From an uncultured Kangiella sp. (GTDB lineage Bacteria > Pseudomonadota > Gammaproteobacteria > Enterobacterales > Kangiellaceae), in NCBI GenBank assembly GCA_947503345.1, contig CANNCW010000005.1, positions 114,454-178,453 on the forward strand: a stretch of 64,000 nt of DNA. The letters are read 5' to 3'. Positions 1,932-18,749 of this stretch are shown piece by piece. The notes under the pieces were generated by a model, which did not search any database, had not been told where the DNA came from, and saw only the letters and a program-made list of their open reading frames with translations. Both the position numbers and the translations under genes were made by a program. Position 1 is the first letter of the stretch. Each line of letters opens with the position of its first letter.

Positions 1932-4900
1932 TTAACCCTTTCGACGTCTTCTCAATCCTAACAACGATAATGCTAATAAAGTTAATAACCCAGTGCTACC
2001 ACCGCCACTAGACTCGTTATTTACATTAATGTCATTGACAATGATATTAATAGGAGCAGTAGCTTCCCCTCCAAAGGAGTCTGTCACTGTAACTTCTATA
2101 GTTAAAGTAGTTCTCGTTGCAACTTCGGGTGCGGTAAAAGTTACACTACCTGTATTTGTAGAACTAAACACTACCATAGGACCATTAGTTTGTGTCCAAC
2201 TATACATTAATGAGTCGCCATTAGGATCCGAACTTATATCAGCATTCAATGTTACGGACGTTCCTTCATTAACTGTTCCAGATGACGCTATAACCCTAGC
2301 AATCGGAGGCAAATTCGCTTCTATATTGACGATAACTTGTCCTTTAGATTCATCTGTTCCATCAGACGCTGTCACTTCAAAAATTAGTTGTGTGTCGATA
2401 TCCACATCTGGAGATGTAAAACTTGCAACCGCAGTATTATCATTTTCTAAAGAAACAGAAGGCGAGCCTGATACTTGAACCCAGTTATAATTAAGAGTAT
2501 CACCTTGCGGATCAGTTGAGCCACTGGCATCTAAACTAACCACAACATTTTCTCTGACATTAAGGCTTGATTGTGCAAGATTCACCACAGGCGCTTCACT
2601 ATTACAAGTAACAGCGTTGGTAATTTCACCTGATAAGAATGCATCAGTTACACCAATAAACTTAATATTATCAATCGTCCAACCAACTCCTCCAGTATTT
2701 GCATCAGTACCTTGACGGAAGCGAATACGAGCAGTTTTACCTGCATGAGCCGTACCAAAAGCTAGTGTCTCATTAATATATCCTGAAGCAGCGTTCACAA
2801 AAGCAGCTCTTTCACTAATTGGGCTATCGTTATTTTGTCTGATAGTACCATTATAACCAGTAGAGAAAGCCCCACTAGCGGCAGTCACATCAACCCATGC
2901 GCCACCATCGATGCTAATCTCGACAACTCCGCCATCCCAAGAGCCGTCCTCAAAATTATAGGTATGCTCAAACTCAATTGAAAAAGCATCATTGCCAATT
3001 GTTAATTCTGGACTTACAAAACTAATGTCAGAACGGAAACCGTTATCAATAAACATCAAAGCATTTCCTAAATCTGCACGACCATCTACTGAAGTAATGA
3101 TTTTCGCCGTATCAATTGCAACTTGTGCACCATCACCAATGGTCATAGAACCTGACTCTCTTGTCCAATCCTTTTCAGCAGCGGCAATACTTGCAAAATC
3201 TTCGGTATCACGAGTCGCATCTGGCCCCAAATCAAAATTAACTTTATAAGTTAAAGTTTCTATTTCTGGCTCAACAATCACATCCCCAGAAGTTGCTTCT
3301 GGGAATTGAACATTAAGATCAATATTTTGTGCTGTAGTTGCAGAGTTTAAAGTGACTTCAAACGTCACATCTTTCGTCTCAAAATGATTTAGACTAGCGA
3401 TAGTTTGTAACCCGTTATTGTTAAAACTAACATCTGCTAAAGAATTCATTTGTACTGCAACGTTAGAAAGAGGCTCACTACCTGTATTCTTAACAGAAAC
3501 CGTTAATAACGCTGTTTCGCCTGCATCTAAAATTCCATCATCAGTGCAAAAACCTGTACCGCCGGTGTATGCATTATCAATATTACTATCAGCAAAATTA
3601 TAACGTGACTGTCTAGCAACAAAACTCTCAACAACCCCTGCATGGTCAGTTGAGTCTTTCGATGGTGAAAGAGCTCCTACGCCCATACCACGCTTTGCAA
3701 AAGCATCTAACATCAAACCGTAATCAACGTTATTTGATGCCAAAGCTACGGCTAACAATGCATCGCGAGCTTCTGTAAAAGTTGGTGCTACTGGTGTCAT
3801 TTTCAAAGATGCTACAAGATAATTTTTCATTTTGTCTTGAGCAGTGGAAAAATCATAAGTATTCAATAATGAAGCGTAAATTTCCCATAAAACTGTCGCC
3901 CAATAATTACCTGAGTTATGAACTTGGGAATTATTAGAGCCATCAGCACCAAATTGAACAGGGTGAGCTGTTGGCAATGGATTGCCATTTGAAACATGTT
4001 TAAACGTTAAAGCATTTTGCTCCATATTCGTTGAATAAGGAACTCGTCTGATACCAAAATAAGCATCGTTATCAGCCCAGCCATACATTGGATACAAGGC
4101 ATGATACTGTTCATTCCCAGCAACATTTTTATCATTTTCTCCAACATAAGAAAGTAAGGCCATAAAATCACCCCAACCTTCACCCATACCACGGCCTTGT
4201 TGGTTACTTAAACCAAAAGCATTTCCAACTAAACGATTGGTGATGTAGTGTCCCCATTCATGAGCAACGATGGCATTATCCAAGGTTCCGTCGACGTCAG
4301 TATTGTCTCTAAACAAGGTAGCAGTCACAGTACCCGCGTCCATTGCTGTGCGAATAGTAACGCCATCATTTTGTGAAACCATCATGCTTGGAATGGTAAT
4401 GGTATTATCATCACCGCCCATAGTTATAACCTGTGTTGCATCTCTATTATTTGCCACTATGACAGCAATTGCGCCAGCATCCTGAGAGTTTTTAACTTTG
4501 TCTGTAAAGTTACACTCCCCTCTATCCACCAAAGCAATTTTACCTGAAAGTGAAGCCCCATTAGTAGGAGCTGTACAGGCGTCAAATTCGGGAGCTGTAG
4601 CATCCGTATAAGCAATCAAATCACCCGTTGTCTCTGGGTACTCAAGAGGACCAAAGCCTGCTAAGCCAACAGTCGGATTAACTAGCCCTGTAACCCCTGA
4701 CAATGTTAACTGGAAGTCTTCGCCTTGAGTGGCAGGACCATCATAAAGATACATTTGCATTCTTGGAGGAAAACCATCAGAAGGCGTAGCCATGTTGGCA
4801 TTATTTCTACCCGAAGAATCTTGCCCTTCTGCATTTATGGCATCATTGCCGGCGCCACCACGACTATAGTTATCATTTTGAGCATTCAGTGAAGCTTCAT

Positions 4901-10295: not shown

Positions 10296-10772
10296 TTAAG
10301 CTTTAGTTAACAGACATATAGCGTGAACGGCAATACCTTCCTTGCGCCCAACAAAGCCTAATTTTTCAGTAGTAGTAGCTTTGATATTAATTTGATCAAA
10401 GTCAACATCACAAACAGCAGCAATGATGGCACGCATTCCTTCAATCTTATTCGCCATTTTAGGCGTCTGTGCCACAATAGTAACGTCTAAATTCCCCAAA
10501 ACATAAGCAGAATCTTTCACTAAGACCATCACTTGCTTTAAAAGCTCTTTACTATCGGCACCTTTAAAAGATTCATCGGTATCAGGAAAGTGATGTCCAA
10601 TATCACCTTTAGCAATCGCACCCAAAAAAGCATCGCAAACCGCATGCAAAACCACATCGCCGTCAGAATGAGCCAATAAGCCCTGCTCACCTTTAAACTC
10701 AACGCCGCCTAGGATTAAAGGTTTATCCCCACCAAACTTATGCACATCATAGCCATGACCAATTCGAAACAT
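10296..10772 (-). CDS. ispF: 2-C-methyl-D-erythritol 2,4-cyclodiphosphate synthase
   Basis: [44 protein letters not shown]. Confidence 0.98.
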
Positions 10773-10796
10773 GAAGCCTACTCAGTAATTTATCAA

Positions 10797-12014
10797 TTAA
10801 GATGATCTTACCTCTATACTTCGTTTATGCCAAACTAATTGCTCCGCTTCAGCCAATGTATTCGCAATACAACCTAATTTATCTTTACCTAACTCATTAA
10901 CCTGCTGAATCGTTTGAATTTTCAAAAAACTGGCAACACTCAATCCACTTGAGTATTTAGCAGAGCCCATGGTTGGTAAAGTATGATTTGGCCCGGCACA
11001 ATAATCGCCATAAGCAACAGCACTATTATCACCAATAAAAATTGCACCAAAGTTATTCAAGTCAGCCTCTTGAATTCTTGCGTCTGCTAATAACAGGTGC
11101 TCAGGCGCGAAATTATCTGAAAATTCAATCATGTCTTTTTTATCAGTCGCCAAAACTAAAGTTATTTGCTTAGACTGGTATAACCCCCATAAATAATCAT
11201 CGGAACTGATTTTTTCATAAAGAGCAGCTATAAGATTTATTTGATCAGATACAAAAACACTATAAGCCTGCGGATCATGCTCTGCTTGAGCTGCCATATC
11301 CGCAATTACCCAATCTAAATTCGATTCTTCCCCAGCCAATATGAGTAATTCACTCGGACCCGCTGGAACATCAATTGCCAATCTTGACTGAAAATATTGC
11401 TTGGCGGCATTGACGTACTGGTTACCAGGGCCAACAACCATCTCTACGGGCTTTGAGTCTTGATAGCCTAAAGCTAAAGCGGAGATAGCTTGAGCGCCAC
11501 CAATCCTAATAAAGCTTGTTGCCCCGGCTAAAGAAGCTGCCGCTAAAATAGCTGGATGGTCCGAAGGTGAGCAGGCAATACGCTCTTCGCAGCCAGCTAT
11601 TTTTGCTGGAATAAGGGTCATTAAAGCGGTAGAAATCAAAGGGAACCTTCCACCAGGAATATAGGCTCCGATTCTTTTGATTGGACGATAGCAGTAGCCG
11701 TAACGACCAGTATTATCAGTAAACTCACGATCGGTTAAAGACTCCTTCTGAAATAGGCAAAATTGCTCTATCCTTTTAGCTGCTGACACGATGGCATCTG
11801 ACAAAGCTTCATCTAGCTCGTAATCCACAAAAGATTTTAGTGGAATAAAATCAGGACAAAAACCATCAAATCGCTTACTTAAATTATTAATCGCCGTATC
11901 GCCGTCCTGCTCGACTTCTTTGATCAACTCAATAACAGACTGCAAACGAAAAGTGCTTTGTTCAGCATTCGGTCTTTGCCAGTTTTCAGTGGTGAAATAT
12001 CGATTATCCTGCAT
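10797..12014 (-). CDS. hisD: Histidinol dehydrogenase
   Basis: YIPGG, VGPGNQYV, AGPSE, AQAEHD, PEHL, GDYCAGPNHTLPT. Start set at ATG 12014 (SD AGGTG 6 nt upstream); the ORF track uses GTG 12023. Confidence 0.93.
   Translation of the reverse strand: MQDNRYFTTENWQRPNAEQSTFRLQSVIELIKEVEQDGDTAINNLSKRFDGFCPDFIPLKSFVDYELDEALSDAIVSAAKRIEQFCLFQKESLTDREFTDNTGRYGYCYRPIKRIGAYIPGGRFPLISTALMTLIPAKIAGCEERIACSPSDHPAILAAASLAGATSFIRIGGAQAISALALGYQDSKPVEMVVGPGNQYVNAAKQYFQSRLAIDVPAGPSELLILAGEESNLDWVIADMAAQAEHDPQAYSVFVSDQINLIAALYEKISSDDYLWGLYQSKQITLVLATDKKDMIEFSDNFAPEHLLLADARIQEADLNNFGAIFIGDNSAVAYGDYCAGPNHTLPTMGSAKYSSGLSVASFLKIQTIQQVNELGKDKLGCIANTLAEAEQLVWHKRSIEVRSS
10805..10833 (-). promoter_or_regulatory. Candidate sigma70 promoter inside the last codons of hisD, pointing into ispF
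   Basis: Minus strand TTGGCA (10833-10828), 17-nt spacer, TAAGAT (10810-10805); about 32 nt upstream of the ispF ATG. Confidence 0.5.
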
Positions 12015-13242
12015 TACGCGCACCTAGCTCACTCATAATATTCTTAGCTGAAACGCCTTTCGACTTTGCGTTAACCAAAGCAAAATATAATAAATCTGCC
12101 GCCTCCCAGCGCACATCTTCTTGCGACTCTGCCTCGATAAGCTCTAAACATTCTTCATTAAGCTTTTCAGCTTGCAGTGCTTTATCATTAAATAATTTAT
12201 TGGTGTAAGAATTTACTTCTGGCTGCTCAATCCTTCGTTGCAATACTTGATCTAACGAATAAAGACTAAATTCAGGTTTTTGACTAGCGAAACAACTATA
12301 ACGGTCAAAATGGCAAGCATTTCCCGTTTGTTTAACTTGGAATATTAAGGTGTCGCCATCACAATCGTAATCAATATTCATTAGCAGCTGACCATTACCG
12401 CTAGCAAGTCCTTTCTGCCAAACCTCTTTACGAGACCGACTGTAATAAACGCCCCGCTGGCTATCTATCGCTTGCGCTAATGAAGCTTGATTAGAGTAAG
12501 CCAACATTAAAACGCTACGAGTTTCATAATCCTGCACTATGGTTGGTATTAAATCGAACTTATCGAAATCCAAGCAAGAGAATAATCCGTCTTTCAAATT
12601 AATTTTGTTGGTATAAAGGGACATACCAATTTGACTATTTGCCCCAAGTCGGTTTATGTACTGAATGTCATCATAATCAGTGATACCTCCAGCAACCGTT
12701 ACAGGAACTTTTGAGTTCTTAATCACTTGGCTAATTCTTTGCTTATCAATACCTTTCAATAAACCTTCTTTATTCACTTGGGTGTATAAAAATTCAGAAC
12801 ATTTTTTCTCAAGCAATGGTATTAAATCTATTACCTTTGTCTTAGACTTTTCTTTCCAACCCTTAATTGCCCAATTATCATCAAAGGCGTCTATTGCAAA
12901 AATTAATTGTTGTTTCGGTAGCTTATTAACAAATTCATCTTGGCAATTTGTGCCAATAATAATCTTAGAGGCGCCGCTGGCAAGGTAATCTCTTGCGGTA
13001 TCATAATCTCTTATCCCTCCTCCAACTCGGCAAGCTCGTCGAGCTAATAGTTGCTTAATTAATGGCTTATTATCACCTCGACCTAATGCCGCATTCAAAT
13101 CTATAATCGCTACTTCGCCATAAAGAGCGAACTCTTCTAACAAATCAAAAACATTCTCTTTTTCAACTATCTTTTTGTCAGGGTTACCCTGCTGTAATTG
13201 AACGGCCTTGCCATCCAATAAATCAATTGATGGTATTAACAT
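12004..13242 (-). CDS. hisA-hisIE: Fusion of HisA (ProFAR isomerase), HisI (PR-AMP cyclohydrolase) and HisE (PR-ATP pyrophosphatase)
   Basis: aa 1-~222: IPSIDL, VGGGIR, IFAIDA (HisA). aa ~224-325: LIPTIVQD, YYSRSR..W.KG..SG, DCDGD, ACH...SCF (HisI). C-terminus: SYT..L, EK..EE, EAADLLY (HisE). One continuous frame. Confidence 0.9.
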   Translation of the reverse strand: MLIPSIDLLDGKAVQLQQGNPDKKIVEKENVFDLLEEFALYGEVAIIDLNAALGRGDNKPLIKQLLARRACRVGGGIRDYDTARDYLASGASKIIIGTNCQDEFVNKLPKQQLIFAIDAFDDNWAIKGWKEKSKTKVIDLIPLLEKKCSEFLYTQVNKEGLLKGIDKQRISQVIKNSKVPVTVAGGITDYDDIQYINRLGANSQIGMSLYTNKINLKDGLFSCLDFDKFDLIPTIVQDYETRSVLMLAYSNQASLAQAIDSQRGVYYSRSRKEVWQKGLASGNGQLLMNIDYDCDGDTLIFQVKQTGNACHFDRYSCFASQKPEFSLYSLDQVLQRRIEQPEVNSYTNKLFNDKALQAEKLNEECLELIEAESQEDVRWEAADLLYFALVNAKSKGVSAKNIMSELGARNAG

Positions 13243-13997
13243 TTTCTCACCTCAATACTATTTTGAATTAATTTTTCTTTAACTTTCGATACGGTTGTTT
13301 CTCCACGATGAAACATCCCAGCTGCTAACGCTGCGTCACTTCCAGCTTTAAATGTATCCACAAAATCTTGTGCATTAGAGGCTCCGCCCGAAGCAATAAT
13401 TTGTATAGATGATTTCTGACAAACCTTGGCCATCAAGTCATTGTCAAAACCTTCACCAGTTCCATCTTTATGCATCGCGGTTAGCAAAATTTCACCAGCA
13501 CCACGTTGTTCCACTTCACTAATCCACTTAAATGGATCTTTATGCGTTGGCGTATGACCTCCATTAATAAATACCTGATATTGTTCATTCACTTGGTTAA
13601 CATCTATCGCAACCACTAAACATTGAGAGCCAAAACCTATAGCAATTTGGTCAATAAGATCTGGGGTTTTAACAGCTGCAGTATTTAAAGCGACTTTATC
13701 TGCTCCAGCATCTAAAAATGCCACCACATCTCCATAAGAATTAAGCCCGCCGCCAACGGTAAATGGAATAGATAGATTCTTAGCAACATTGGTAACAGTA
13801 TCTAAGGCATTTTTTCGATTTTCCAAAGTAGCCTTAATATCTAGAAACATTATTTCATCAGCTCCTTGTTCTTGGTAATTTATAGCTAATTCAACGGGGT
13901 CACCCATATCCTTCAAGCCTTTAAAATTAACGCCTTTTACCACTCTGCCGTTAGCGACATCCAAGCAAACAATTACCCGCGATTTTAATTTAGACAT
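13236..13997 (-). CDS. hisF: Imidazole glycerol phosphate synthase, cyclase subunit
   Basis: RVIVCLDV, VVKGVNF, GDPVELA, GADEIMFLDI, DGTGEGFD, IIASGGA. Confidence 0.97.
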   Translation of the reverse strand: MSKLKSRVIVCLDVANGRVVKGVNFKGLKDMGDPVELAINYQEQGADEIMFLDIKATLENRKNALDTVTNVAKNLSIPFTVGGGLNSYGDVVAFLDAGADKVALNTAAVKTPDLIDQIAIGFGSQCLVVAIDVNQVNEQYQVFINGGHTPTHKDPFKWISEVEQRGAGEILLTAMHKDGTGEGFDNDLMAKVCQKSSIQIIASGGASNAQDFVDTFKAGSDAALAAGMFHRGETTVSKVKEKLIQNSIEVRKC

Positions 13998-14584
13998 TGT
14001 TTTAGAATCTCCTCACCTTGTTTACCCGATTTTTCAGGATGAAATTGAAATGCTGTTAGCCCTTTAGATTGGATAGAAGCTGAGAACTCATCTCCATAAG
14101 AAACTAAAGAAGTTGCAAACCTAGACTCTTTAACTGCATAACTATTTACAAAATAAACGTCTCTATCACTTAAGAAAGGTATATCTGAATTCAGAGAACA
14201 CCAACCGACCATAGGTTGTTTTGGGCTATTTAACTTAGTAACCCTACCTTCCAATAAACCTAACCCTTCTACGCCCAAATCCTCTTCAGATGATTGGAAA
14301 AATATTTGCAAGCCAACACAGATCCCTACAATTGTTCTGTCTTGTAGATACCAGTCTATTATTACTTTAGATAATCCATTATCGTTTAAGCGTTGCATGA
14401 CACTACCGAACCTACCTTGACCGGGAATGACCATAGCCTTGAATTGTTTTTCTGATTGCTTATCAATATCAGATGCTTGGCTGATCATCACAGGCTCAAG
14501 CCCAATACGCTTCAAGCAAGAAAAAAGACTAAATAGATTGCCAGCTCCAGTATCAATCACTGCTACTTTTTTGATATCAGTCAT
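13985..14584 (-). CDS. hisH: Imidazole glycerol phosphate synthase, glutaminase subunit
   Basis: IDTGAGN, IPGQG, GICVGLQ (nucleophile Cys), QFHPEKSG. Confidence 0.96.
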   Translation of the reverse strand: MTDIKKVAVIDTGAGNLFSLFSCLKRIGLEPVMISQASDIDKQSEKQFKAMVIPGQGRFGSVMQRLNDNGLSKVIIDWYLQDRTIVGICVGLQIFFQSSEEDLGVEGLGLLEGRVTKLNSPKQPMVGWCSLNSDIPFLSDRDVYFVNSYAVKESRFATSLVSYGDEFSASIQSKGLTAFQFHPEKSGKQGEEILKQCLN

Positions 14585-15159
14585 AAAACACCTTTTGAGC
14601 TATTTTCTAAGGCAGTACTAGCTAATGCTTGCTTTAATGCAAACGCTACCGCCTTAAAACTAGCCTCAATTAAGTGATGATTATTATCAAAATATTCAGT
14701 TTTGATATGCAGACTTATTTGCGCATTAATAGCAAAGCTATAGAAGAAGTGTTTCCACATCTCTGTTGCAATATTTCCTATCTGCTCACGACTAAAGGGC
14801 AAGTCGGTAATGCTATAAGCACGACCACAAACGTCCACCGCAACTAACACTAAAGTTGCATCCATTGGCAATAATCGTTGGCCATAACGCTGAATTTTTG
14901 CAGATGCGCGCCATGCTTTTTGTAATGCCTGACCTAAACATATAGCCACATCTTCAATTAAGTGATGGTCATCAACCTCTAAGTCACCTTGCGCAATTAC
15001 TTTCAAATTCCAGCCAGCATGTAGCGCAAGTTGAGTAAGCATATGGTCAAAAAATGGTAACCCTGTATTTATTTCTAAGTTTTGATTACCCGCTATATTT
15101 AATTTGAGTTTGATCTGAGTTTCTTTTGTTTCTCGTTCTATAGATACAGTTTGGCTCAT
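14581..15159 (-). CDS. hisB: Monofunctional imidazoleglycerol-phosphate dehydratase
   Basis: RETKETQI, FFDHML, DDHHLIED, NNHHLIEASFKA; no N-terminal phosphatase domain. Confidence 0.96.
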   Translation of the reverse strand: MSQTVSIERETKETQIKLKLNIAGNQNLEINTGLPFFDHMLTQLALHAGWNLKVIAQGDLEVDDHHLIEDVAICLGQALQKAWRASAKIQRYGQRLLPMDATLVLVAVDVCGRAYSITDLPFSREQIGNIATEMWKHFFYSFAINAQISLHIKTEYFDNNHHLIEASFKAVAFALKQALASTALENSSKGVL

Positions 15160-16826
15160 AATAAATCCTCTAGCTCATTAACACTTTCAAGAACAATGTC
15201 AGCACCAAATTGGTATAAACTCTTATCGCCAATACCTATAGCTAATGCCCCTGCTGATTTAGCTGCAAGCATATCGTCAGGTGCATCACCTAACATCCAG
15301 AGCGAGGTCTTTTTGTAATATTTTTTCGCCTTATCTATTCCTTCCGGACTTGGCTTAGATTTAATGACATCATCATCACTAATCAATAACGTGTTTAATA
15401 TTCCAAGTAAATTTAATCCAGCCTGCCCTTCAGTTTTACCTCTACCGGTTACAACGGCAGTACAAAGACTTTTGGATTTTTGAATAAAAATATAATCTGA
15501 TAATGATCTTTGGATTATTCGAGCCTCTTGTTCATATAATCCTTTCGCTTTTCCATCTCCTAAATAGAATGATTGAAAGGTATCTTTTACTCTATTGAAT
15601 TCAATTTCCTTGCCTTGTTTACGGATAAGTTCTTGTGCAAGAATCCAATCATTATTAAAACCTCCTTGCCCTCGTGTATTTAAAACATCAGCCACCGGGG
15701 GGCTTACACCAGTAAAATCCTCGACTGTTTTAATGATTGCTAAGTCATAGCTTTCTGAGGTATCAATCAAAACCCCATCCATATCAAAACAAATGAGTTC
15801 GGGCTCTAAAGCAAGCTTAAGTGCTGATAACAATCTTTTAATATAAAACGGAATGGCTATTCTTATAGCTTCAAATGAATTTACCTCTGAGAGACCTACT
15901 AACTCAGTTTTTATCTGTATATTCAGCTGCTTACAAGCAGCAGAGATGAGCTTAAGGCGTTTCGAATCTCCTCGTATTAATAAAAAGTTTGCTTCACTAG
16001 AACTTAATACCAATGGATAATCAGATAAAAAATTAATTATCTGCTGACGATTTAAATTAATTTGCTTGCAATAATTTTTAACTTCTAAGCTTGCAGATTG
16101 GGTAAAGGCTAACAACGCTAACTCGATATTAGGCTGCGAAATATTGAAAGGCATTGCCAACTTTTTGAACTCATTAATTAAAGTTTGTTGTCCTAATAAA
16201 TAACCTACTCGGATAGCGGCAAGACCATAGGCTTTGGATAAGGTTCTAAGGATCACTAAATTATCGAAGTCATTAAGTAATGCTAGATACTCATCTTCTA
16301 GATTAGTAAATTCGATATAAGCACAATCGAGAAAAACGTAAGCATTATTTTCTTTAGCCTTCTCACAAACAGCTCTTACTTTCTCTGCTGATAAAGTTTC
16401 GCCAGTGGGATTATTTGGACTTGTGATAATCACCATTGAGTTTTGCTCTATTGAAGACAAAAGTGATTCTTGATCAATATTTAACTCTGCTAATGGCTCT
16501 ATAATTTCGCAGTCAACTTTCCAGGAGTCCTTTCCAACCCAATACTGACTAAAAACAGGTAATGGCAGAATCAATTTAGAATCATTGATTTTTACCCATT
16601 TAAACATCAACTCTATGGCTTCATCGCCACCATTAGTAATCAGCAATTGATCTTTATCAATCTGAAATTTGTCGCAAATGACTTGCTGTAATTGATCCTT
16701 ATTAGGATACTTCCATAGACTATCAACAGGCATTTTAAACCCTGATAACCATAGAGGTAGACTATCCGAGCGTTCATTAAAATCGAGCTTCAGCGTTTTT
16801 TCATTCTGACAACTTAAAACATCCAT
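15156..16826 (-). CDS. hisC: Histidinol-phosphate aminotransferase fused to a C-terminal HAD-family phosphatase
   Basis: aa 1-~340: ITNGGDEAI, SPNNPTG, DCAYIEF, RTLSKAYGLAAIRVGY (PLP Lys). aa ~342-556: FDMDGVLID (D348/D350), VTGR, SKPSPEG, LGDAPDD (HAD motifs I-IV). Confidence 0.9.
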   Translation of the reverse strand: MDVLSCQNEKTLKLDFNERSDSLPLWLSGFKMPVDSLWKYPNKDQLQQVICDKFQIDKDQLLITNGGDEAIELMFKWVKINDSKLILPLPVFSQYWVGKDSWKVDCEIIEPLAELNIDQESLLSSIEQNSMVIITSPNNPTGETLSAEKVRAVCEKAKENNAYVFLDCAYIEFTNLEDEYLALLNDFDNLVILRTLSKAYGLAAIRVGYLLGQQTLINEFKKLAMPFNISQPNIELALLAFTQSASLEVKNYCKQINLNRQQIINFLSDYPLVLSSSEANFLLIRGDSKRLKLISAACKQLNIQIKTELVGLSEVNSFEAIRIAIPFYIKRLLSALKLALEPELICFDMDGVLIDTSESYDLAIIKTVEDFTGVSPPVADVLNTRGQGGFNNDWILAQELIRKQGKEIEFNRVKDTFQSFYLGDGKAKGLYEQEARIIQRSLSDYIFIQKSKSLCTAVVTGRGKTEGQAGLNLLGILNTLLISDDDVIKSKPSPEGIDKAKKYYKKTSLWMLGDAPDDMLAAKSAGALAIGIGDKSLYQFGADIVLESVNELEDLL

Positions 16827-16835
16827 TGCTGACTC

Positions 16836-17684
16836 CTAAAGTACTTTTCTAATCGGCGTTTCTAAAATATCCGTTGCACCAGCAGAAATTAATCTGGGCA
16901 ATAGATCCTTGGTCATACGCCTCTCAATAGCTGCTTTAATAGCAAACCCATCGCCTCGATAGAGCTCGCTCACCGTTGGCGATCGCATTGCTGGTAGCAA
17001 ATCTACAATTTTTTCGACCTTATCTTTAGGACAATTCATTTCTAATAAGACTCGCTTACGACCATTCATCACCCCCCTCATTAATAGTAAAAGGTCATCG
17101 ATTTGCTTCTTCTTTTGAGGATCTTTGAGTATAGACTTGTTTGCGATAAACTGAGTTGAGCTTTCCATAGCAGTACCAACTATTTTCAATCGATTTACTC
17201 GGATGGTTGAGCCAGTACTGGTATTATCAATGACCATATCAGCATCTTCAGGTGGAAAAACTTCAGTAGCGCCATAAGCTCTAAAGAGTTGATAATTAGC
17301 ACCAATAGAATCCAAGTATTGCTTTGCAATTTGTTTATATTCCGAAGCAACTATAATTTCTCGTTGTCTAACTTCACTCCAATCCCATTCCTCTGGAATG
17401 CAAGCCACGATTTTTACTGGGTTAAAGCCGAGGTTTTCTAGCACCTCAACGTCCGCATTTTGTTCTATAATCCAATCCATACCAGCAAAACCAATATCGT
17501 GCTGACCCAATGCAACCATTTCTGGAATGTTTTGGCTTTTCAATAACTTAACCTCAATATCACAACCAAATAAAGTTGGTCTGTAATTGCGACTATCACC
17601 AACCAAGGTTAAGCCAATATCCGATAATAGCTCCTCGACTTTCTCGTAAAGCTTACCCTTTGGTATTACCATTTTTAACGCCAT
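16836..17684 (-). CDS. hisG: ATP phosphoribosyltransferase, long form
   Basis: IPKG, DIGFAGMDW, YGATEVFP, DMVIDNTSTGSTIRVNRL, C-terminal regulatory domain (LPAMRSPTV); SD GGAG. Confidence 0.95.
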   Translation of the reverse strand: MALKMVIPKGKLYEKVEELLSDIGLTLVGDSRNYRPTLFGCDIEVKLLKSQNIPEMVALGQHDIGFAGMDWIIEQNADVEVLENLGFNPVKIVACIPEEWDWSEVRQREIIVASEYKQIAKQYLDSIGANYQLFRAYGATEVFPPEDADMVIDNTSTGSTIRVNRLKIVGTAMESSTQFIANKSILKDPQKKKQIDDLLLLMRGVMNGRKRVLLEMNCPKDKVEKIVDLLPAMRSPTVSELYRGDGFAIKAAIERRMTKDLLPRLISAGATDILETPIRKVL

Positions 17685-17718
17685 TTTGATTCTCCAAACT
17701 ATTAAATTTTAATTCTGC

Positions 17719-17759
17719 AAATAAAAACCCCGCTGACCTTTCGGAGCAACGGGGTTTTA
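17719..17759 (-). terminator. Attenuator 2 terminator, proximal to hisG
   Basis: Minus strand AAAACCCCGTTG-CTCCGAAAGGT-CAGCGGGGTTTT followed by TATTT: 12-bp stem with one G-U pair, GAAA loop, U-rich tail. Confidence 0.85.
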
Positions 17760-17776
17760 AAAATCGATTTATATAA

Positions 17777-17845
17777 CTACAACAAATCCCACCGTCGCCA
17801 ATGCAAAGTATGATGATGATGTGTTGTTATAAGTTGTATATACAT
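17777..17845 (-). CDS. hisL: His leader peptide 2, MYIQLITTHHHHTLHWRRWDLL (22 aa)
   Basis: Manual translation; four consecutive CAT codons plus a fifth His; stop TAG 17 nt before terminator 2. Not in the ORF track. Confidence 0.8.
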   Translation of the reverse strand: MYIQLITTHHHHTLHWRRWDLL

Positions 17846-17870
17846 ATTAGTTTCTATTTTCTTAAAGCAT

Positions 17871-17899
17871 AAAAAAAGCCCCGCAATTTGCGGGGCTTT
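17871..17899 (-). terminator. Attenuator 1 terminator, distal
   Basis: Minus strand AAAGCCCCGCA-AAT-TGCGGGGCTTT plus TTTT: perfect stem followed by a U run (7 T after the GC stem). Confidence 0.9.
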
Positions 17900-17932
17900 A
17901 AAATTCATTCTATTCGATTATTTTAAGCAATA

Positions 17933-17992
17933 TCACCCCGCCATCAGTTTTTCATGATGGTGATGATGGTTTTGTGCTTGCAAAATAATCAT
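17933..17992 (-). CDS. hisL: His leader peptide 1, MIILQAQNHHHHHEKLMAG (19 aa)
   Basis: Manual translation; five consecutive His codons (CAT CAT CAC CAT CAT); the 3' end GCGGGGT is complementary to the 5' arm of terminator 1. Not in the ORF track. Confidence 0.85.
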   Translation of the reverse strand: MIILQAQNHHHHHEKLMAG

Positions 17993-18035
17993 GCTGTGAT
18001 TTAAACCTATACTGTTTTTAAATGCAACTATTTTT

Positions 18036-18749
18036 TTAATGACTCAATGAAATAGATGCAAGAATTAAATCTTCATGTTCGGTAACTTTTATATTACGCT
18101 TTGAACCAACCACCAGAGCAGGACTATAACCTTGCGCTTCCATAGCTGATGCCTCGTCGGTGATTAAAACATTTTCCTGTAACGATTTCTCAATAGCACT
18201 TTGTAACCGTGCTACAGGGAAGTATTGTGGTGTCTGGGCAAGCCAAATAGTTTCTCTTGGAATAGTTTTATTAATGGTTTGTTGATTGTTAGTAACCTTA
18301 ACCGTATCAAATGAAGGTACCGCTAAAATCACACCGTCAGGCGAGGTTTCTTGAGCTTTGATTAGGTTGTCGATATGCATAGAATACAGGCATGGACGTG
18401 CTGCATCATGCACCATTACCCAATCATTATCACCGCCAGCTTGTTTGATATATCTCAAACCATTGTTAACTGAATTGCCCCTTTCATCGCCACCATCAAC
18501 CACAATGATTTTTCTATGATTTGAAACTTTTAATTTTTTCCAATGACGATCATTTGGATTTATCGCAACTATGACTTTATGTATTTTAGGGTGGGTAATA
18601 AAAGCATCTAAGCTATGCTCTAGAATGGTTTTATTACCTATGGATAAGTATTGTTTGGGTATATCAGAGCCCATTCGCGAGCCAATGCCAGCTGCGGGAA
18701 TGATAGCCCAAATTCTTTGTGGAGTATCTAAACGAGAAGAACTGGTCAT
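18036..18749 (-). CDS. ispD: 2-C-methyl-D-erythritol 4-phosphate cytidylyltransferase
   Basis: IPAAGIGSRMG..IPKQY, VHDAARP, AQTPQ, TDEASAME, NIKVT. Confidence 0.97.
   Translation of the reverse strand: MTSSSRLDTPQRIWAIIPAAGIGSRMGSDIPKQYLSIGNKTILEHSLDAFITHPKIHKVIVAINPNDRHWKKLKVSNHRKIIVVDGGDERGNSVNNGLRYIKQAGGDNDWVMVHDAARPCLYSMHIDNLIKAQETSPDGVILAVPSFDTVKVTNNQQTINKTIPRETIWLAQTPQYFPVARLQSAIEKSLQENVLITDEASAMEAQGYSPALVVGSKRNIKVTEHEDLILASISLSH

Follow-up and report, generated by a model that had tools for sequence, protein, structure and literature searches.

The his operon of the Kangiella window (the window being the whole stretch of 64,000 nucleotides that was analysed) is likely to be controlled by two ribosome-mediated, histidine-responsive transcription attenuators arranged in series on one leader transcript, a reading to which we assign a probability of about 0.72. 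It is built on the anatomy of the two units, on their conservation and covariation among relatives and on their switching in silico, each of which was observed and is described below. An earlier note on this DNA had described two complete leader-peptide attenuators ahead of hisG, and all their elements were retrieved on the minus strand at the places it gave.

Genomic setting and anatomy of the two units

Genes on the minus strand follow one another in the order ftsB, ispD (18749-18036), a gap of 351 nt, hisG (17684-16836) and the rest of the his operon. According to the Pfam scan, hisG and the genes downstream form a complete his operon composed, 3' of hisG, of a hisC::HAD-phosphatase fusion, hisB (IGPD), hisH, a His_biosynth paralogue, a His_biosynth::hisI::hisE fusion and hisD. 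The next gene, 24 nt past hisD, is ispF, and the his operon is therefore located between ispD and ispF. The HisG protein shares 89% identity with its counterpart in Kangiella sp. HZ709, and the sequencing runs found to contain this locus in a search of runs are DNA or metagenome runs. The end of ispD and leader 1 are separated by 43 nt, an interval in which no terminator was found from the sequence and a terminator scan. The features of the leader and its surroundings are listed here in the direction of transcription.

18036..18749, minus strand: ispD, with its stop at 18036
18022..18027, minus strand: -35 hexamer of the his promoter, TTGCAT (TTGACA in most relatives at the aligned position)
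17999..18004, minus strand: -10-like hexamer TTAAAT, a match to the consensus only, 17 nt past the -35 hexamer and 6 nt before the leader-1 ATG
17933..17992, minus strand: leader peptide 1 ORF, MIILQAQNHHHHHEKLMAG followed by TGA, without Shine-Dalgarno and with a predicted leaderless start
17954..17968, minus strand: leader-1 His codons 9-13 (CAT CAT CAC CAT CAT), region 1 of unit 1
17934..17968, minus strand: protector (1:2) hairpin of unit 1 in the predicted fold, with the His codons paired to GAUGGCGGGGUGAU
17935..17942, minus strand: region 2 of unit 1 (GGCGGGGU), 5' strand of the antiterminator, overlapping the TGA stop and the final codons of leader 1
17871..17899, minus strand: terminator 1, AAAGCCCCGCAAATTGCGGGGCTTT, stem-loop and T-tract, from sequence and fold
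17846..17870, minus strand: spacer of 25 nt between terminator 1 and leader 2, A-rich with weak Shine-Dalgarno-like purines
17777..17845, minus strand: leader peptide 2 ORF, MYIQLITTHHHHTLHWRRWDLL followed by TAG
17810..17821, minus strand: leader-2 His codons 9-12 (four CAT), region 1 of unit 2
17788..17799, minus strand: region 2 of unit 2 (GGCGACGGUGGG), 5' strand of the antiterminator, inside leader-2 codons 16-19
17723..17758, minus strand: terminator 2, AAAACCCCGTTGCTCCGAAAGGTCAGCGGGGTTTTT, from sequence and fold
17692..17695, minus strand: Shine-Dalgarno GGAG of hisG, read in the sequence and conserved in the alignment
10797..17684, minus strand: regulated his operon, from the Pfam scan and the ORF list

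The limits previously proposed for leader 1, terminator 1 and leader 2, as well as both peptides, agreed with the sequence, ORF and fold checks; terminator 2 was rightly positioned, but its extent (17759-17719) had been drawn slightly too generously. The earlier count of five His codons per leader, with the run starting at codon 9 in both, is right, and in leader 1 the five are consecutive. In leader 2 the run comprises four codons, and the fifth His (codon 15) is isolated and unconserved, the relatives having TLRERRW at that place. An ORF of 43 amino acids (17908-17777), running through terminator 1 in frame with leader 2, was rejected as a gene; a similar extension exists in only 3 other loci.

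Terminator 1 consists of a perfect 11-bp stem including 7 G-C pairs, followed by T7, with a folding energy of -18.8 kcal/mol; that of terminator 2 reaches -20.5 kcal/mol. Against dinucleotide shuffles, the folding z-scores are -5.0 for unit 1 and -3.5 for unit 2. In the predicted fold of unit 1 the antiterminator pairs GGCGGGGU with GCCCCGC (-13.2 kcal/mol), and the antiterminator duplex in the window has an energy of -15.7 kcal/mol (z -4.3 against shuffles). In unit 2 the pairing of GGCGACGG.GGG with CCCCGUUGCU has an energy of -16.1 kcal/mol (z -3.8 against shuffles). The protector of unit 1, of -12.5 to -14.7 kcal/mol, is significant in the duplex test against shuffles (p = 0.003), and that of unit 2, of -11.0 kcal/mol in the predicted fold, is not significant alone (p = 0.13 against shuffles). 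The antiterminator and protector pairings that the earlier note had proposed for each unit are all present in the predicted folds, with statistical significance for the protector of unit 1 but not for that of unit 2.

Taken together, the leader carries two ORFs with His-codon runs (five in leader 1; four plus one in leader 2) upstream of his genes on the same strand. Each unit possesses an intrinsic terminator between its leader ORF and the structural gene, and an antiterminator that pairs with the left arm of this terminator and lies near the end of the leader ORF. The two complete units are 147 nt apart, and their arrangement appears to be a genuine tandem of sensor-plus-terminator units with no gene or promoter in between, the absence of a promoter being argued from non-conservation. 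From their codon content, both units would be specific for the same signal.

No Rfam family matched at its gathering threshold over the whole window. The His_leader model (RF00514) aligned over its full length to both units with 31.8 bits (17969-17869) and 22.5 bits (17822-17719), below its gathering threshold of 49. The Kangiella leader would work like a His leader, but with these scores it is not a member of this curated enterobacterial family.

Conservation, covariation and origin of the doubled leader

A set of 46 loci coding for relatives of this HisG was retrieved, and 700 nt of upstream sequence from each were scanned for His-rich short ORFs and terminators. The tandem was present in all 16 Kangiella genomes examined (K. 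shandongensis, the window and 14 other loci), and the Marinicella clade contributed about 18 further loci with it. Only one unit was present in Pleionea, Aliikangiella, several unclassified gammaproteobacterial MAGs and one Kangiellaceae MAG, and these single-unit relatives retain unit 1, the upstream one. In a neighbour-joining tree of HisG, the single-unit locus L019 is sister to the tandem locus L022, and the single-unit loci L027 and L046 are nested within the tandem Marinicella, which indicates that unit 2 was lost at least twice. Because of these losses, unit 2 is dispensable in at least some backgrounds.

A His run is found in 33/33 copies of unit 1, written in 12 different synonymous CAT/CAC strings, and in all 32 copies of unit 2, in 17 such strings. 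This maintenance through synonymous changes points to selection on the meaning of the codons and not on the DNA sequence. In all loci and both leaders, the run starts at codons 8-10.

Leader 2 is clearly alike in the two genera (..HHHHHTLRERRW.. in Kangiella vs ..HHHHHRTLRRRF in Marinicella), and so is the terminator associated with it (CCCCGTTGC... vs CCCCGTCGC...). The doubled state should therefore be older than the split of these his operons, or have moved with the operon. From these comparisons the doubling appears old and clade-wide, spanning two families, which contradicts the alternative raised in the earlier note that the insert had arrived with one attenuator and gained a second, as far as a recent gain tied to this insertion is concerned. 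The tandem is also kept in Marinicella and in K. shandongensis, where the gene upstream differs.

The distribution of the architecture was further searched among 185,579 species-representative genomes with a pattern made of 4 His codons, 50-80 nt, GGGGYTTTTT, 35-65 nt and again 4 His codons. It occurred 10 times and each occurrence was this his leader, in Kangiella or in the Marinicella clade; this pattern is specific, but biased to that terminator motif and spacing. A broader pattern, two His-codon runs 115-145 nt apart, matched at least 120 loci and, after filtering, the matches listed were His-rich coding sequences with no tandem attenuator among them.

Covariation in relatives, suggested by the earlier note as a check, was found in both units as a three-way co-change in unit 1 and as compensatory changes in the two terminators. 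In an alignment of 32 unit-1 copies, 93.7% of the cells of terminator 1 are paired, with 4 pairs changed on both sides, and 91% of those of antiterminator 1. The sequences of regions 2, 3 and 4 are GGCGG.., ..CCGCC and GCGG.. in Kangiella vs AACGG.., ..CCGTT and AACGG.. in Marinicella, i.e. the G-to-A change in region 2 is matched by C-to-T in region 3 and G-to-A in region 4. This co-change of three regions is suggestive of region 3 pairing alternately with regions 2 and 4, and it is no statistical proof since it represents essentially one (or few) between-genus event(s). Terminator 2 has 89.6% of its cells paired, with compensatory CG to AU changes, and both terminators were predicted independently by RNAalifold. 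For the unit 2 antiterminator, the MAFFT alignment shifts region 2 of Marinicella by 3 nt relative to the pairing register of Kangiella, and per-sequence duplex statistics were therefore used in place of a column-based count.

Across loci, the antiterminator duplex has a median z of -2.7 in unit 1 and -2.3 in unit 2 against shuffles, and the unit 2 duplex reaches p <= 0.05 in 69% of copies. The unit 1 antiterminator is weak in several Kangiella species (GGCGGUG; -6.5 to -9.6 kcal/mol, not significant), and the protector reaches p <= 0.05 in only 15% of the unit-1 and 41% of the unit-2 copies.

The global alignment of units 1 and 2 gives about 62% identity (z about 7), and a 23-nt direct repeat (78%) lies just upstream of each terminator. 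These similarities fit an ancient duplication and rule out a recent duplication or an assembly repeat. This exclusion had been reached in the earlier note from the differences between the units, and it stands; the units are nevertheless not unrelated. Like-with-like comparisons of units between genera score only marginally above cross comparisons, and the ancient duplication is a plausible, unproven, origin of the pair.

The loss of unit 2 in L019 and in L027/L046 could also be taken as a sign that a single unit is the working His sensor, the other being a decaying duplicate or a constitutive terminator that insulates the operon from ispD read-through. The weak protector of unit 2 and the proximity of ispD, ending without a terminator 43 nt before leader 1, would agree with it, as would the possible fate of read-through transcripts, on which the internal, Shine-Dalgarno-less leader 1 would be untranslated and transcription would stop at terminator 1. 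A plain insulator, however, needs neither the His runs that both leaders keep through many synonymous changes nor the antiterminator complementary to its own terminator that each unit keeps in two families, and the persistence of the tandem behind different upstream genes also argues against this explanation, which we consider unlikely.

Predicted switching and the serial arrangement

The sequence upstream of leader 1 has the same layout in Kangiella, in Marinicella and in the single-unit relatives: TTGACA, 17-18 nt, a -10-like hexamer, 6-8 nt and the leader-1 ATG. TTGACA is conserved at this place in the alignments of both genera, and the -10-like hexamer, which reads TACATT, TTTAAT, TAACAT, TACCAT or CACTAT in relatives, is kept in position. 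No Shine-Dalgarno-like motif precedes the leader-1 ATG in about 40 loci. Because of this lack of Shine-Dalgarno and of an ATG located 6-8 nt past a conserved -10 hexamer, leader 1 is probably translated from a leaderless mRNA, with a transcript that begins at or beside the AUG. Leaderless initiation is inefficient in E. coli. Leader 2 is preceded by weak purine tracts only (GAGA or A-rich), and since leader 1 has no Shine-Dalgarno and leader 2 nothing more than such a tract, the translation of both leaders is assumed here.

The spacer between the units bears on whether they act on the same transcript. A second promoter, in the spacer (17870-17846) or within unit 1, would make them independent: its transcripts would see attenuator 2 only and unit 1 would mainly end or limit transcription coming from upstream. 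The spacer is AT-rich, which makes weak promoters hard to exclude, and a 9/12 promoter-like match exists inside unit 1 (17936-17907). This match is however at chance level (2 found, 3.3 expected), and a transcript originating from it would begin at terminator 1 itself. Unlike the conserved promoter before leader 1, the spacer shows no conservation of length (~25 to 110 nt) or of sequence in either Kangiella or Marinicella, which therefore leaves no conserved internal promoter; none was found in the spacer alignments of the two genera, and there was no promoter-like match at 17846..17870 either. The internal promoter at 17870-17846, named in the earlier note as what would make the units independent, was consequently not retrieved as a conserved element, and we judge independent units very unlikely.

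Folding of each unit, another check put forward in the earlier note, revealed a switching that depends on ribosome position, on the stall or at the stop, in both units of the window. When full-length units were folded at equilibrium with a ribosome mask, the terminator dominated (P about 1) whatever was masked; as the terminators always win at equilibrium, the switch must be kinetic, like that of classical attenuators. The transcript was thus modelled as folded up to the terminator loop, with the ribosome-covered bases masked. In this model, for both window units, the left arm of the terminator is locked in the antiterminator whenever one of the His codons of the run occupies the A site, and it is free once the ribosome stands at the stop codon or has moved 3 or more codons beyond the final His of the run. 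Over all loci, a ribosome stalled in the His run sequesters the modelled terminator arm in 33/33 copies of unit 1 and 31 of the 32 copies of unit 2; once the ribosome is at the stop codon, these numbers fall to 1/33 and 5/32, respectively. With no ribosome, the two window units are predicted to behave differently: the protector hairpin forms in unit 1 and the terminator arm is free, and the shortened transcript of unit 2 prefers the antiterminator.

The mechanism suggested for the serial attenuators would proceed as follows. Transcription would start at the conserved sigma-70 promoter, with 6 nt separating its -10 hexamer from the leader-1 ATG. Under a shortage of His-tRNA, the ribosome would stall on His codons 9-13 of leader 1; region 2 (GGCGGGGU) would then be available for pairing with the left arm of the first terminator, and the RNA polymerase would read through. 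With plentiful His-tRNA, the ribosome would reach the TGA inside region 2 of unit 1 and mask this region, and terminator 1 would form. Polymerases past terminator 1 would then meet unit 2, operating with the same logic through its four consecutive His codons, its region 2 GGCGACGG and terminator 2, and hisG would be reached only by transcripts that passed both checkpoints. If both leaders are translated and both terminators used, read-through would approximate the product of two probabilities, and, compared with one attenuator, this multiplicativity would reduce the basal level and make the response to histidine starvation steeper. In addition, terminator 1 could possibly insulate the operon by stopping ispD read-through transcripts, because ispD has no terminator of its own and leader 1, internal and without Shine-Dalgarno on such transcripts, would be untranslated.

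The two units could also respond to different signals, unit 2 for example reading Arg/Trp codons (RRW, RRR) as well, since leader 2 keeps 2-4 Arg codons past its His run in both genera. These Arg/Trp codons are nevertheless the antiterminator strand itself (GCGACGG), so that RNA pairing explains their conservation, and a ribosome stalled on them would mask region 2 and promote termination, not induction. Considering also that the same His run occupies the same position in both leaders, sensing of different signals is highly improbable.

A possible, and on balance doubtful, elaboration of the serial reading is a division of work between the units, which together would form a two-step, proofreading-like, ultrasensitive switch. 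Unit 1 may respond to histidine only where the transcript comes from the his promoter, through its leaderless AUG, and terminate upstream read-through by default; unit 2, with an internal leader and a modelled tendency to default to read-through when untranslated, may re-check His-tRNA a moment later. If true, it would represent the first natural case of a same-signal tandem leader-peptide attenuator whose units each follow a distinct logic.

Comparison with known regulatory systems

Leader-peptide attenuation is a textbook mechanism, and in the textbook case there is one attenuator per operon. The survey of Vitreschak and co-workers is reportedly the main comparative survey of proteobacterial attenuators. 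Full-text literature searches, with the survey of Vitreschak et al. 2004 (FEMS Microbiol Lett) outside their scope, returned no description of two leader-peptide attenuators for the same amino acid in series, and an earlier record may exist. The author of the earlier note knew of no described tandem His attenuator of this type and had called for a literature check, which in these full-text searches agreed with that impression; no paper came up in a search for Kangiella together with histidine biosynthesis. That control can be sharpened by stacking regulators is a principle known from other RNA switches, and the same-signal leader-peptide tandem is a new variation on it.

The Kangiella leader shares with the enterobacterial hisL (RF00514) a short ORF with a His run, alternative 1:2, 2:3 and 3:4 pairings (predicted in Kangiella), an intrinsic terminator before hisG and, as proposed here, the selection of the antiterminator by ribosome stalling on His codons. 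It differs from hisL by two complete units instead of one, by 4-6 His codons in each instead of 7, and by a first leader devoid of Shine-Dalgarno and apparently leaderless.

Tandem riboswitches and T-boxes are organized in a similar way, with one leader bearing, in series, two complete sensor-plus-terminator units that respond to one signal. Tandem His T-boxes, for example, precede a histidine transporter operon in Enterococcus (PMC9413887). Such tandem units are believed to cooperate or to sharpen the response. The sensor of those systems is an RNA that binds the ligand or the tRNA directly, whereas in Kangiella it would be the ribosome translating the leader peptide. Synthetic tandem attenuators of pT181 are more sensitive to their input and have a shifted response threshold (bioRxiv 10.1101/003335); these engineered devices, which respond to an antisense RNA instead of a ribosome, support the view that attenuators in series change the gain. 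The sensitivity of these engineered tandems and the cooperativity of T-boxes make the gain expected from the Kangiella series reasonable.

Among leaders with two short ORFs, that of Salmonella mgtCBR senses ATP through mgtM and proline through mgtP, with additive action; its authors call it singular, regard a single attenuator as the norm for biosynthetic operons and contrast it with metE, which has two intrinsic terminators (PMC3641672). As in mgtCBR, two short ORFs in the Kangiella leader would each control alternative RNA structures and transcription elongation. The signals differ in mgtCBR; in Kangiella both ORFs are His-rich and each unit has an intrinsic terminator of its own. The erm leaders likewise place two leader peptides, ermBL and ermBL2, before one gene, with ribosome stalling as sensor; in the part of that source considered here, this control is translational, macrolide-responsive and, unlike in Kangiella, involves no pair of intrinsic terminators (PMC8274638).

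The conserved same-signal pair suggests that ribosome-sensing switches can be stacked in nature like riboswitches and T-boxes, with a change of gain and leakiness. Relatives with one or two units (L019 vs L022, and L027/L046 vs Marinicella) constitute a natural test system, in which natural parts would make it possible to measure how stacking affects basal level, dynamic range and steepness.

A leaderless first leader in a gammaproteobacterium raises the question of how transcription-translation coupling is set up without a ribosome-binding site. The trpL attenuator transcript of Sinorhizobium meliloti begins at the AUG of the leader peptide (PMC7298713), and the poly-Cys short ORF attenuators of mycobacteria are also leaderless (bioRxiv 10.1101/834739), so that a leaderless Kangiella leader 1 is not new in kind. 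Both belong to other phyla or classes and consist of one unit, for Trp or Cys; Kangiella adds to such a start a second, internal leader.

Origin and loss of the second attenuator

The number of predicted histidine attenuators differs among close relatives: locus L019 carries a single unit whereas L022 carries two, and L027 and L046 are single-unit loci as against the tandem Marinicella loci. This distribution implies that unit 2, the hisG-proximal attenuator, was lost at least twice. The gap between terminator 1 and hisG is only about 50 nt in L027 and L046. As to its origin, the two units of the window share about 62% global identity and the following repeat, which spans the approach to the left arm of each terminator.

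17750-17772 and 17891-17913: direct repeat of 23 nt, the two copies 78% identical and 141 nt apart

Together, the repeat and the global identity hint that unit 2 derives from an ancient duplication of unit 1.

Features of the two leader peptides

17990-18027, minus strand: leader 1 start and promoter region, at the same position in L001-L046, the 46 loci encoding HisG relatives
17779-17800: Arg/Trp codons of leader 2, compared across leader 2 of L001-L045
17777-17908, minus strand: 43-aa ORF beginning MNFKAPQIAGLFLCFKKIETNMYIQ, in frame with leader 2 and spanning terminator 1

In about 40 loci, TTGACA is followed after 17-18 nt by a -10-like hexamer and, 6-8 nt further, by the ATG of leader 1; the hexamer is conserved among them, single-attenuator relatives included, and no Shine-Dalgarno sequence precedes leader peptide 1 in these loci. 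Leader peptide 1 is probably leaderless, an unusual situation for a gammaproteobacterial attenuator.

Directly after its His run, leader 2 contains two to four Arg codons, often with a Trp codon, in variants such as RRW, RERRW, RRRF and RRRC, and this is kept in both genera. Because the antiterminator strand GCGACGG occupies this very stretch of codons, the codons are probably a by-product of the RNA pairing. The 43-aa ORF is probably due to chance, since comparable extended ORFs were found in just three other loci (L028, L032 and L040). The start codon of leader 2 is GTG in K. shandongensis (L167).

Organization of the his operon and its flanks

10296-18749: whole his operon with ispD and ispF flanks
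10772-10296: ispF, starting 24 nt past hisD
15156-16826, minus strand: class I/II aminotransferase (HisC-like)::HAD phosphatase fusion, 556 aa
12004-13242, minus strand: His_biosynth::PRA-CH::PRA-PH fusion (HisA/F-HisI-HisE), 412 aa

The genes ispD and ispF are adjacent as a rule; in the window the entire his operon lies between them. Since the 24-nt gap between hisD and ispF contains no terminator and the sole promoter-like site upstream of ispF (TTGGCA, 17 nt, TAAGAT; 10833-10805) is at chance level, this essential isoprenoid gene may be partly co-transcribed with the His-attenuated operon. The operon of the window includes two gene fusions, of which HisC::HAD comes next after hisG in almost all related loci.

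The gene that precedes the his leader varies within Kangiella: a 123-aa lipoprotein-like gene separates the leader from ispD in strain HZ709 (L001, 2241-2612), and an unrelated gene lies upstream in K. shandongensis (L167, about 3200-3400).
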